Below, one piece after another: positions 183-39,234 of a DNA stretch of 39,584 nucleotides (position 1 is its first letter; every line of letters begins with the position of its first letter). The notes under the pieces are model-generated. The model was given only the letters and a program-made list of their open reading frames with translations, made no database searches and was not told the origin of the DNA. Made by a program: the position numbers and the translations under genes. The stretch comes from a virus. Its lineage: Duplodnaviria > Heunggongvirae > Uroviricota > Caudoviricetes. The stretch lies in IMG/VR virus record IMGVR_UViG_2585427708_000019; one strand, written 5' to 3'.

Positions 183-293
183 ATGAAAATTATCAGTTTT
201 GCTTTGCCTTGCTTGCTGGTCCTGGCTGGTTGTTCAACCTCTTCTCAGCCAGAAGCACCTAAACCGCCGCAGATTGGTATGGCAAATCCGGCG
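183..293 (+). pseudogene. yoaF: 5' fragment of host lipoprotein gene (DUF333-type YoaF), interrupted by prophage insertion
   Basis: ORF starts MKIISFALPCLLVLAGCSTS (signal peptide plus lipobox LAGC). After ...IGMANPA the frame runs into phage-end sequence at 294. The in-frame continuation SVYCQQKGG...CKLPGGETIDEWALWRRDHPAGEK is at 39069-39234. Confidence 0.7.
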
Positions 294-475
294 TGTAACC
301 AGGTGAATCATTTGATACCAACGAGGGTTTTAGTGAAAGGAGGTGAAATCACCTGTAAGATACTGAAATAAAACAGGTGATGTCTGGATGAGCGCTTAAA
401 GTCTATTTGATACCGATTGTGCAATAATTAATCGTTTATTCTAAAATCGGCAAAACTTTTGATACTGCGATCTCA
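294..475 (+). repeat. Left end (attL) with three putative transposase-binding repeats
   Basis: Starts TGTAACC (Mu starts TGTATTG). Repeats TTTGATACCAACG (~312), TTTGATACCGATT (~407), TTTTGATACTGCG (~457). Their reverse complements recur at the right end. Confidence 0.6.
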
Positions 476-543
476 ACTTTTTAAAGCGTTTAAAACTTCA
501 TTAAATCTATATGGCAACTAACATACGGGCCAGCCTCGCCAAA

Positions 544-1074
544 CTAACCCGCTTTAGATTCTACCGGATTTGATTGCCTACTTGTCTCGGTTTTTTCCAA
601 AATCTCTCTGACGCAATCGTCTGGCATATCTACAATCATCAACGCAGCCAGGCGCTTCCTGCCTTCTAGTTGTAATAAATCCTGGTTTTCTTTATCCAGC
701 AGTGTCAGAACCGTCTCTACACCTTTGCGAGCAAGGAGATTGGTTAACTGTTCTCGTTCGTCTTTCGTAAGGAATGAAAGCATCTGTGTAAGTTGATCTC
801 CCTTATCACCAGAACAACCAAAATTACCACAAATACCAACATCGTTTGGTGATTCACCCTTGCCCTCTTTAAGCCACTCAAGACTAACTCCTTCACTTTC
901 AGAAATTCGTATAAGGATACTTTCTCTGGGGGCTGGTTGTGTTTGTCCTCCCTTGAAATAGCTGTTTAATGTGTTGATATTGATTCCCCACGCTCTGGCA
1001 GCTGCACTTCTTGAAGGGTAGCGCTTTGTAAGCATTCCAATACGTTCAATAACAGGTTCTTTTCCCTGCGACAT
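544..1074 (-). CDS. Prophage repressor with CI/XRE-like N-terminal HTH
   Basis: Minus-strand ORF divergent from ner-A-B. Internal ATG at 1074 with a GAGG RBS gives MSQGKEPVIERIG...; HTH-like segment SRSAAARAWGININTLNSYF. Position matches Mu c. Confidence 0.65.
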   Translation of the reverse strand: MSQGKEPVIERIGMLTKRYPSRSAAARAWGININTLNSYFKGGQTQPAPRESILIRISESEGVSLEWLKEGKGESPNDVGICGNFGCSGDKGDQLTQMLSFLTKDEREQLTNLLARKGVETVLTLLDKENQDLLQLEGRKRLAALMIVDMPDDCVREILEKTETSRQSNPVESKAG

Positions 1075-1149
1075 AAAGATACCTCTTGGTGCTTTTCTAA
1101 GGAAAGGTTTCTTTCTATTTATCCAATTGAAAAATAAGGATAAAAGCAA

Positions 1150-1264
1150 AAATTAGCCAAAATACCAAAAATACCTTGATTTGGTATTTTTGGTGATGCA
1201 TTATTTACCCGTGCAGATATCCGCACGAATATCCGCGCGGGTAACTTTTTAGAATAGAGGAAGT
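1150..1264. promoter_or_regulatory. Divergent early promoter/operator region between repressor and ner
   Basis: Inverted repeat AAAATACCAAAAATACC...GGTATTTTTGGTGA and direct repeat GATATCCGCACGAATATCCGCG in the 115-bp gap between divergent genes. Confidence 0.5.
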
Positions 1265-1513
1265 ATGAGTAGAAGAGAAGTTTCAGATCACGATTGGCCG
1301 CCTGAAATCATCAAGGCGCGCTTACACATGGCTGGCTTATCACTGCGCTCTTTATCTTTAAAGGCTGGTTACAGCAGGGATTCGCTGAAAAGCGTATTAC
1401 GTACTCCTTGCCGACCGTATCAGCAAATAATTGCTGATGCTCTTGGGGTATCGCCTGAAGAAATCTGGCCCAGTAGATACCAGGTTAAGAGCTATATGAG
1501 AAAGGCGTCATGA
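1265..1513 (+). CDS. ner: Ner-like DNA-binding early regulator
   Basis: 82 aa, GAGGA RBS, first gene of the early operon. C-terminal motif ...IIADALGVSPEEIWPSRYQ resembles Mu Ner (...IIANALETKPEVIWPSRYQ). Confidence 0.8.
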   Translation: MSRREVSDHDWPPEIIKARLHMAGLSLRSLSLKAGYSRDSLKSVLRTPCRPYQQIIADALGVSPEEIWPSRYQVKSYMRKAS

Positions 1514-1514
1514 T

Positions 1515-37979: not shown

Positions 37980-38005
37980 AATCGATCGTTTTTGTCGATC
38001 GATTG
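37980..38005. promoter_or_regulatory. GATC-containing palindrome upstream of com-mom (candidate Dam/OxyR-type control region)
   Basis: AATCGATCG-tttttgt-CGATCGATT inverted repeat carrying two GATC sites about 45-65 bp upstream of the com start. Confidence 0.55.
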
Positions 38006-38047
38006 CATGAGAAAGGCATCAACAACAAAGCAGGAGGTTATGCGGTC

Positions 38048-38248
38048 ATGTATCGAAACATACGGTGCCGACACTGCAATAAGCTACTGGCACGGGCCAG
38101 TTTCAGTTATCTGGAAGTAAAATGTCCGCGCTGTAAAACCCTCAATCAAATCACATCTCCGAGCGCCACAGAGCACCCCACATACACAAGGAAATCCTGT
38201 CGTGGGGAACAGAAAGCAAGTCACATCCCGAATCATCAGCACGCCTGA
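38048..38248 (+). CDS. com: Com-like zinc-finger translational activator of mom
   Basis: ATG at 38048 with AGGAGG RBS; [33 protein letters not shown] has a CxxC...CxxC finger (Mu Com: ...IRCKNCNKLL...RCPRCK...); 3' end overlaps the next gene. Confidence 0.8.
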
Positions 38249-38939
38249 ACTTATTCGCTATAACGACAATATCGTTGGTTATGGCTCCCGTGAGTTGCGG
38301 GTTGAGACAATAAGTTGCTGGCTGGCCAGACTGGTCATCGTCAATAAACATTACAGCCACCGTTTCGTAAATAACTCCTACCTTCATCTGGGCATATTTT
38401 CAGAACGGGAACTTGTTGGCGTAATGCAATGGGGTTACGCCCTTAACCCAAACAGTGGTGCACGCGTCGTAACGGGTACGCAGAACCGAGAATATATGGA
38501 GCTTAACCGGCTATGGCTGCATGACTGTATGCCGAGAAACTCCGAATCAAGGGCAATCAGTTACGCGCTCAAGCTAATCAGGCAGCTTTATCCGCAGGTA
38601 CAGTGGGTTCAGTCGTTTGCAGATGAGCGTTGTGGCTGTCTTGGTGTCGTGTATCAGGCAAGCAATTTTGATTATGTAGGCAGCCATGAATCAATATTCT
38701 ATGAACTTGATGGCGAGTGGTATCACGAGATTTGCAGGAATGCCATTAAACGAGGCGGACAACGAGGTGAACATCTGAGGGCTAATATTGACAGAGCCAG
38801 TGTTCATAAGTTCCGACAGTTTCGTTACATCCGGTTTCTGAACAAGAGGGCCAGAAAACGCCTCAACACAAAGCTATTCAAAGTCCAGCCTTACCCAAAA
38901 CCACAAACAGTTAAAACTGGTTTGAAAGAGAGTGAATGA
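38202..38939 (+). CDS. mom: Mom-like DNA modification (anti-restriction) protein
   Basis: 245 aa starting at GTG 38202 (AAGGA RBS) inside the 3' end of com; last gene before the right end, as in Mu. Confidence 0.7.
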
Positions 38940-38974
38940 GCGCTTAAAAACTCATTCTAAAACTCAAAAGAAAA

Positions 38975-39067
38975 GCGCCGATTTAGTATCAAATAAGTTG
39001 CGTATCGGCGTTTTTCAGCGGTATCAAATGAAATGCAAATCGGTATCAAAAAAATCGCCGCGCTATA
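38975..39067 (-). repeat. Right end (attR) with three putative transposase-binding repeats
   Basis: AGTATCAAA (~38986), GGTATCAAA (~39020), GGTATCAAA (~39042) are reverse complements of the left-end TTTGATAC(C/T) sites. Terminal bases read ...CGCCGCGCTATA rather than ending in CA. Confidence 0.6.
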
Positions 39068-39068
39068 G

Positions 39069-39234
39069 GCGTCGGTCTATTGCCAGCAGAAGGGCGGGAC
39101 GCTCATTCCAGTGCAGACAGCGCAAGGGGTCAGCAACAATTGCAAATTACCGGGCGGTGAAACGATTGATGAATGGGCATTGTGGCGACGGGACCATCCG
39201 GCTGGTGAAAAATAACCGCCGGATGCTGTACTAA
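39069..39234 (+). pseudogene. yoaF: 3' fragment of host lipoprotein gene yoaF
   Basis: In-frame translation ASVYCQQKGGTLIPVQTAQGVSNNCKLPGGETIDEWALWRRDHPAGEK ending at TAA 39232-39234; an in-frame TAG lies immediately upstream at 39066-39068. Confidence 0.7.

Follow-up and report, generated by a model that had tools for sequence, protein, structure and literature searches.

An intact Sp18-type Mu-like prophage in yoaF ends with TA on the right and is flanked by a perfect 4-bp target-site duplication

The stretch of DNA analysed here (the window, 39,584 nt) very probably contains a functional, recently inserted transposable phage of the Mu-like Sp18 type known from Shiga-toxin-producing E. coli (STEC). 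The Mu-like prophage occupies positions 294-39067 (38,774 bp), splits the host gene yoaF and, judged by its sequence, is an intact copy of Sp18, a well-known and already described Mu-like transposable prophage found in Shiga-toxin E. coli. Its TA right end and the 4-bp target-site duplication around it are best read as normal for the Sp18 phage family and not as a defect. The host locus, the junctions and the termini were assigned as follows.

183-293, + strand: 5′ part of yoaF, codons 1-37 of a DUF333 lipoprotein gene, ATG at 183 (100% identical to yoaF as annotated in numerous E. coli genomes)
290-293, no strand: target-site duplication, left copy, GGCG, 4 bp (GGCG once in the empty site; flank comparison)
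294-39067, + strand: Sp18-type Mu-like transposable prophage, TGTAACC...GCGCTATA (identity to Sakai Sp18; ends as in 15 independent insertions)
294-295, + strand: left terminal dinucleotide TG, CA-3′ on the transferred strand (the left-end matches listed all begin at 294)
39066-39067, + strand: right terminal dinucleotide TA, non-canonical (base-for-base alignment with ...ATCGCCGCGCTACA of the Y. ruckeri pYR4 prophage, which has CA)
39068-39071, no strand: target-site duplication, right copy, GGCG, 4 bp (empty-site and flank comparison)
39072-39215, + strand: 3′ part of yoaF, 48 codons, counting the TAA stop at 39213-39215 (frame continuous with 183-293)
39237-39584, - strand: yeaO, host neighbour, reaching the window end (annotation of the empty-site locus L001; ORF list)

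The junctions were read against the uninterrupted locus. In the empty-site locus L001 yoaF is whole (255 nt), and the empty site of strain 600468 reads ...AATCCGGCGTCGGTC... with a single GGCG. Comparison with the window gave a perfect 4-bp GGCG duplication around the prophage, and removal of the phage together with one GGCG restored yoaF in frame, with 111 + 144 = 255 nt, the length of the intact gene. The original prediction had placed the prophage inside yoaF, with a 5′ part at 183-293, a left end starting with TG and a right end other than CA; all of this was borne out, the 5′ part comprising 37 codons from the ATG at 183, the TG lying at 294-295 and the right end reading ...GCGCTATA and ending with TA at 39067. 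Other details had to be corrected. The 3′ part of yoaF had been given as 39069-39234 but is 39072-39215, 39234 being the stop of an ORF in another frame (38932-39234), and host sequence resumes at 39068, not at 39069. The supposed imperfect 5-bp duplication CGGCG/AGGCG was a counting error, because A39067 had been counted twice, as last base of the phage and as first base of the flank. The outcome named beforehand as a refutation, a CA end with a perfect 5-bp duplication, did not appear; the empty-site comparison yielded a TA end with a perfect 4-bp duplication.

Alignment with prophage Sp18 of E. coli O157:H7 Sakai gave a single full-length match of 99.94% identity (38,774 vs 38,755 bp). The differences amounted to 5 SNPs, an in-frame gain of 18 bp in a hexanucleotide repeat, (AGCCGA)n, and a 1-bp indel at 34052; no open reading frame was shortened, in agreement with the earlier impression of an intact prophage. 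Sakai Sp18 has the same termini, the same gene set and a 4-bp duplication as well (TAAA in Sakai), whereas the insertion site differs, being sorM in Sakai and yoaF in the window. The assignment to the Sp18 type follows from this near-identity along the whole element, together with the termini and a short perfect flank duplication. A search of the whole window with Rfam and ARAGORN gave no match from either. The prophage carries a full Mu-like gene set, of which the following features were located.

544-1074, - strand: repressor-like gene, c position of Mu (RefSeq 'regulatory protein' on the identical Sakai ECs_4943; the Pfam match is weak)
1265-1513, + strand: Ner-like HTH protein (Pfam HTH_35, E=2.5e-19)
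1515-3605, + strand: transposase A, 696 aa, predicted DDE residues D309, D375 and E415 (Pfam domains, MuA alignment, RSV integrase core alignment)
3676-4608, + strand: MuB-like AAA+ transposition ATPase (Pfam Phage-MuB_C, E=2.5e-25; 48% identity to MuB)
5961-6491, + strand: Gam-like host-nuclease inhibitor (RefSeq annotation, identical protein)
10343-10768, + strand: Mor-family late-transcription activator (RefSeq annotation, identical protein)
32670-34060, no strand: invertible tail-fibre segment with 185-nt inverted repeats at 32670-32854 and 33876-34060 (repeats; annotated alternative tail-fibre/assembly genes)
34121-34681, + strand: Gin-like DNA invertase (RefSeq 'DNA-invertase / recombinase family protein')
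38202-38939, + strand: Mom DNA-modification gene, with com upstream, ending at 38248 (annotated features under the right-end matches)

Transposase A matched the Pfam families Mu-transpos_C (E=1.5e-17, 63.8 bits, cut-off 21.7) and HTH_Tnp_Mu_1 (E=1.9e-6, 28.7 bits, cut-off 23.3). It is 22% identical to MuA over the full length, with D309 and D375 falling on MuA D269 and D336, and its core aligns with RSV integrase; a phmmer search against PDB sequences returned retroviral integrase cores only and no MuA, indicating divergence. The transposase, a DDE enzyme that has both the end-binding and the C-terminal domain of the Mu type, lies next to a MuB-like AAA+ target-capture ATPase, and the predicted Mu-type nature of the prophage was confirmed by the transposase domains and the MuB homologue.

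The termini were then read in 15 independent Sp18-type junctions, comprising the window and 14 others, including a relative in E. coli CP55_Sichuan. The right end was ...GCGCTATA in 15/15 insertions. The left end was TGTAACC in 14/15; the CP55_Sichuan relative begins with TATAACC and thus has TA at both ends. A perfect duplication of 4 bp was found in 14 of the 15 insertions and one of 5 bp in the remaining one, and all 15 had a flank match of at least 4 bp, for which the chance is 1/256 per event. The stagger is therefore not strictly fixed. Hence, neither the 5-bp target-site duplication nor the 5′-TG...CA-3′ termini of Mu-type elements were found as the rule; the left end of the window prophage is TG, and the right end is TA in every copy. 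Among 216 matching E. coli records, 206 showed 100% identity across the terminal 60 nt, TATA included. Up to 4 copies of the element are present per genome, and complete E. coli genomes contain about 262 Sp18-type copies. The 15 different junctions, with dozens of different disrupted or flanking genes, speak for insertion at many unrelated sites without an att site. The right-end 16-mer AAATCGCCGCGCTAYA hit at least 120 loci in genome contigs, none listed with the subterminal repeat context, a 16-mer being too short for this 596-Gb collection.

Repeats next to the termini provided a second line of evidence for the position of the ends.

311-465, + strand: three direct TTTGATAC motifs, putative transposase-binding sites L1-L3, at 311-318, 406-413 and 458-465 (repeat families, motif enrichment)
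38986-39050, - strand: three TTTGATAC motifs, putative R1-R3, at 39043-39050, 39021-39028 and 38986-38993 (repeat families, motif enrichment)

The window contains 9 copies of TTTGATAC where about 1 is expected (9-fold), and six of them lie at the two ends, three per end and in inverted orientation. Their position and the analogy to Mu suggest that they may serve as transposase-binding sites. The outermost motif is 17 nt away from the terminus at each end (the first left motif and, at the right, R1), and this equal spacing supports A39067 as the right terminus.

Could the insertion be intact but domesticated, with competent ends that are silenced by repression or non-inducibility, so that the ends tell nothing either way? 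Sp18 is indeed not mitomycin-inducible in Sakai, and its DNA was found to be packaged but not circularised; nevertheless, efficient packaging of Sakai Sp18 DNA was demonstrated by experiment (PMC2669165). Moreover, no gene of the window prophage is disrupted relative to Sp18 and the family has evidently moved about among STEC lineages, which makes silencing very unlikely. As Sp18 does not respond to mitomycin in Sakai, its lytic competence under laboratory conditions is documented in part only.

The suggestion made earlier, of a stranded, transposition-impaired prophage whose right end has mutated from CA to TA and whose 5-bp duplication is imperfect, draws on the TA end, which differs from the CA of Mu. 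Mutation of the terminal CA reportedly impairs MuA. However, the same ...GCGCTATA end goes along with clean duplications throughout the independent insertions and is conserved in the records described above, the duplication in the window is a perfect one of 4 bp, and the near-identical Sp18 is packaged (PMC2669165). In addition, a scan of 5,426 complete genomes found this exact yoaF junction in just 2; therefore, the insertion is taken to be recent and made by an element that already ended in TA. Since the TA end and the 4-bp duplication are common to Sp18-type insertions, and are annotated in record LC727881.1 as well, an impairment is contradicted and has to be considered extremely improbable.

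Equally improbable is an element whose last base is the T of ...GCGCTAT and whose target duplications have 5 bp as in Mu, the first of these being changed to A at the right junction every time: the empty-site comparison alone cannot separate a phage A plus 4 bp from 5 bp with a changed first base, but the base is A in 15/15 events whatever the target base (mostly C, T or G), the 17-nt spacing of TTTGATAC is the same at both termini only if the A belongs to the phage, this A lines up with the last A of the canonical ...GCGCTACA end in the Y. ruckeri relative, where the duplication likewise has 4 bp, and a non-templated constant base should not be maintainable through replicative transposition by a Shapiro-type mechanism. 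The 5-bp assignment with conversion to A was rejected on the symmetry, the CA-end alignment and the mechanistic grounds.

With a functional Sp18-type phage as the preferred reading, transposition may proceed as follows. A MuA-family DDE transposase, with the MuB-like ATPase, would bind the three TTTGATAC-type sites per end and free the 3′-OH of the last A in both strands, ...TTACA-3′ at the left and ...CTATA-3′ at the right. These 3′ ends would be joined to target phosphates staggered by 4 bp, occasionally by 5 bp, and gap repair or replication would then give rise to the target duplication; we infer the cleavage positions and the 4-bp stagger from the genomic scars. The TA right end would be the normal terminus of the lineage. 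Because the Y. ruckeri relative ends with ...GCGCTACA, the TA of Sp18 is read as a C-to-T change of the normal CA end, a transition of an ancestral CA in which the terminal A would be preserved, as would a flexible pyrimidine-purine step.

The window taken alone is of little consequence; the yoaF insertion is a routine, recent event by a common STEC prophage, by which a small lipoprotein gene was knocked out. Of modest general interest is that a phage lineage which is common and active in E. coli and has a MuA-type transposase departs from the Mu rule of TG...CA ends and 5-bp duplications. Since the lineage breaks the Mu rules, prophage-boundary tools and annotators that assume them will misplace the ends by a base or flag a defect, as happened here.

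Phage Mu, like D108 and SfMu, has the same gene order (c-ner-A-B...gam...mor...lysis-head-tail-invertible segment/gin-com/mom). Common to Mu and the window prophage are the MuA-family transposase architecture, the MuB homologue, the TG left end, three subterminal repeats per end and near-random insertion. In contrast, the end sequences of Mu are unrelated to those of the window prophage, the right terminus is CA in Mu and TA here, and the duplication has 5 bp in Mu and 4 bp here. As a control, a true Mu in E. coli W was read by the same method and gave TG...CA ends and a 5-bp GCCGC duplication.

The Mu-like insert in the Stx2c phage JNE082796 (LC727881.1) belongs to the same phage type as the window prophage and its transposase is 99.4% identical, but it is a longer variant (39,968 bp) that resides inside an Stx prophage. 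Its depositors annotated the TGTAACC...GCGCTATA element together with a 4-bp 'duplication due to insertion'. In the text of the CC119 study (PMC10132054), neither the ends of this insert nor the size of its duplication come up, and a literature search on the termini of Sp18 and the size of its duplication, or on Mu-like phages that duplicate 4 bp, found no statement in a text but only this GenBank feature.

Enterobacterial relatives share the transposase clade and the end layout with the window prophage and have 4-bp flank repeats where these are readable; the subterminal repeat motif of the more distant ones differs. Transposase identity to the window prophage was 79% for Yersinia phage vB_YpM_5, which appears to have TA at both ends, 56% for the Klebsiella Kp4866-3 type, 46% for the Y. 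ruckeri pYR4 prophage and 45% for an E. albertii plasmid prophage. The transposase of D3112-like Pseudomonas phages is 31% identical. The Y. ruckeri prophage has canonical TG...CA termini, ending with ...ATCGCCGCGCTACA, and a 4-bp TGCA duplication; pilV is best restored when exactly 4 bp are taken out along with the phage. The Klebsiella plasmid prophage (L014) ends with ...GCGCGCTATA and lies inside IS26, where a host TG coincides with the phage TG, so that its flank repeat can be read as 4 or 6 bp; it served as supporting evidence only. The E. albertii prophage has TG...CA ends and AATT flanks, which leave 4 or 5 bp ambiguous because the base before the repeat is A. Within this clade, Sp18 thus has TG...TA ends, some relatives have TA...TA, and TG...CA occurs in the rest of those read. 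While the sequence facts on ends and duplications are solid, we propose only tentatively that the Sp18/Yersinia/Klebsiella/E. albertii clade could represent a naturally occurring version of the Mu transposition machinery, with a stagger of 4 bp (rarely 5 bp) and CA or TA as terminal dinucleotide; beyond a GenBank feature annotation, this point may be unreported.

All Mu-like and B3-like elements are said to have TG-CA ends and 5- or 6-bp duplications in PMC8705779, where it is also asked whether TA-ended prophages occur outside Leptospira. If true, a Mu-variant clade would contradict this generalisation, answer the question with yes and provide matched natural CA and TA ends for testing the role of the penultimate base; transposition biochemists would gain naturally paired CA/TA termini as well as a Mu-like scaffold that works with a 4-bp stagger. 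The transposable prophages of the Leptospira WETA1 type have TA-TA termini, 6-bp duplications and B3/Tn552-type transposases (PMC8705779). Like the window prophage, they combine non-canonical TA termini with evident activity. Unlike them, the window prophage has TG...TA ends in place of TA at both ends, a 4-bp in place of a 6-bp duplication and a MuA-type in place of a B3/Tn552-type transposase.

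Junctions of the prophage were set from both window ends against the uninterrupted yoaF locus of strain 600468, which reads ...AATCCGGCGTCGGTC... with a single GGCG. The left host sequence ends with ...AATCCGGCG, the insert reads TGTAACCAGG...CGCCGCGCTATA and the right host sequence starts again with GGCGTCGGTC..., giving the following arrangement:

183-293, yoaF 5' part, 37 codons
290-293, first GGCG
294-39067, insert, 38,774 bp
39068-39071, second GGCG
39072-39215, yoaF 3' part, TAA at 39213-39215

GGCG is present once in the empty site and twice in the window, a perfect 4-bp target duplication. 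The original prediction was partly confirmed. Insertion in yoaF, the position of the yoaF 5' part and a right terminus in TA instead of CA (...GCGCTATA) proved to be real, but the 3' part does not extend over 39069-39234, 39234 being the stop of another frame. The proposed imperfect duplication (CGGCG and AGGCG, 4 of 5 bp) resulted from counting A39067 both as the final base of ...GCGCTATA and as the start of the flank. The comparison with the empty site moved the junctions and gave a perfect duplication, but of 4 bp and with a right end that is still TA, not CA.

Only RM8385 (O103) and 2013C-4225, among 5,426 complete genomes, have the yoaF junction; the insertion is therefore recent and was made by an element whose TA end was already in place. 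[quoted passage not shown]

Both the ends and the element as a whole correspond to Sp18 of E. coli O157:H7 Sakai, a prophage type known since the Sakai genome, and its relatives. Identity to Sp18 is 99.94% over the full length; the window copy differs by 5 SNPs, an (AGCCGA)n repeat longer by 18 bp and an additional G at 34052, and no reading frame is shortened, in line with the prediction of an otherwise intact prophage. The Mu-like gene set comprises a repressor, a Ner-like HTH protein, transposase A, a MuB-like ATPase, Gam and Mor, as well as genes for lysis, head and tail, com/mom and an invertible tail-fibre segment accompanied by a Gin-like invertase. Mu-type domains are present in the transposase, yet its identity to MuA is just 22%, and MuA was not recovered by phmmer against PDB sequences; B shares 48% identity with MuB. 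Sp18 was predicted to be intact and, in experiments, was not circularised and was packaged with good efficiency (PMC2669165).

Three local features were noted besides. The repeat, a perfect (AGCCGA)x11.8 at 21126-21196 encoding (Ala-Glu)12, is located in an HI1506-related head-region gene (20848-21252) and differs in copy number among strains (18 bp more than in Sakai; annotated gene of 354-393 nt in other genomes). The extra G at 34052, within 34047-34059 (AAACCGAAGGTTT), falls at the outer margin of the invertible segment's right inverted repeat (185 nt), directly upstream of the invertase gene. It may influence the crossover site for inversion, or a small ORF that PGAP annotates as intact in certain genomes and as frameshifted in others. 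At ~17964-18044 (minus strand), between head-morphogenesis and virion-morphogenesis genes, RefSeq (PGAP) gives a 'tRNA-OTHER' in several genomes with Sp18-type phages; over the entire window, ARAGORN found no tRNA and Rfam gave no match.

Both junctions were read for 14 further independent insertions, making 15 events with the window. Four of these lie in prophage genes (lysozyme, tape-measure and two portal genes), one in an Stx2c phage, one in the xylE-psiE spacer and one in an unannotated spacer; the others disrupt sorM, dcuC, ydhR, ldcC, melA, a transaldolase gene and an ABC-ATPase gene. The duplication was a perfect 4 bp in 14 of 15 events and 5 bp (CGTCT) in RM10386, which suggests an occasional 5-bp stagger; in this strain (NZ_CP028126.1, junctions 693107 and 654364) the phage still ends ...TATA despite the 5-bp duplication. 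Of the fourteen 4-bp events, just one has A directly 5' of the left repeat; the constant A at the right junction is therefore a phage base. Of 216 matching records, 206 have the terminal 60 nt, TATA included, at 100% identity; every match sampled reaches the last base, and up to 4 copies are present in some genomes. That this copy is impaired in transposition is unsupported, since all 14 further insertions share the ...GCGCTATA end, and the TA end is not a defect of this copy; the prophage is an active and unexceptional representative of a known family. In GenBank LC727881.1, the depositors annotated a 4-bp 'duplication due to insertion of Mu_JNE082796' on either side of exactly TGTAACC...GCGCTATA, which the paper tied to this record does not discuss. 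In phage orientation, position 2 of the duplication was C in none and position 3 was G in one of the 15, a hint of a weak symmetric target preference in a sample too small to trust.

The same method, applied for control to Mu in E. coli W, gave TG...CA with a 5-bp duplication (GCCGC). Relatives were as follows.

Ends and flank repeats of relatives (identity of transposase unless stated)
Y. ruckeri pYR4 prophage: 46%; TGTGGGGG...ATCGCCGCGCTACA; TGCA (4 bp)
E. albertii plasmid prophage: 45%; TG...CA; AATT
Klebsiella plasmid prophage: 56%; TGTTAAG...GCGCGCTATA; compatible with 4 bp
E. coli CP55_Sichuan (NZ_CP053731.1): left end 79% DNA identity; TATAACC...GCTATA; clean GGCG (4 bp)
Yersinia phage vB_YpM_5: 79%; apparent TA at both ends, from motif spacing

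The Y. ruckeri pilV gene was best restored by removing the phage and exactly 4 bp (open frame of 522 aa; 417-431 aa after removing 3, 5 or 6 bp). From these relatives, the 4-bp duplication is a property of the Sp18 transposase clade, and the TA of Sp18 differs from an otherwise aligned CA end by a C-to-T transition of the penultimate base. CP55_Sichuan, a diverged Sp18 relative, starts with TATAACC instead of TGTAACC and thus has TA at both ends. In the 'circular' record of vB_YpM_5 (MT374853.1, 4650-4735), ~80 bp of unrelated sequence separate the inferred right end (...GCGCGCTTTA) from the inferred left end (TATGAAGAGG...). This stretch is probably host DNA that was packaged or an artefact of assembly, as is typical of transposable phages.

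The motif TTTGATAC is present nine times in the window (~1 expected), with three copies per end in inverted orientation, the outermost exactly 17 nt from each terminus. This equal spacing supports symmetric cleavage at T294 and A39067. An element one base shorter, with 5-bp duplications whose first base was converted, was rejected: it would make the 17-nt spacing unequal, does not fit the alignment with the CA-ended relative and needs a constant non-templated base, which could not survive replicative transposition. The ends, duplications and Mu-like gene set were read directly, and the steps of transposition are inferred: A, helped by B, would assemble on putative sites L1-L3 and R1-R3 and nick both ends so that the 3'-OH of each terminal A is exposed; these ends would be joined to target phosphates 4 bp, at times 5 bp, apart, and the gaps filled by repair or replication. 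Like CA, TA is a flexible pyrimidine-purine step and retains the terminal A, which may plausibly explain why it is tolerated.

According to a survey from 2021, TG-CA ends and duplications of 5 or 6 bp are common to all Mu-like and B3-like (pro)phages described to date; it gave TA-TA ends in Leptospira as new and posed their existence elsewhere as a question (PMC8705779). The Sp18 clade is a counter-example to this generalisation; a paper naming it as such was not found in our incomplete coverage of the literature. The sole and modest interest lies in this family-wide departure from the end and duplication rules of Mu.
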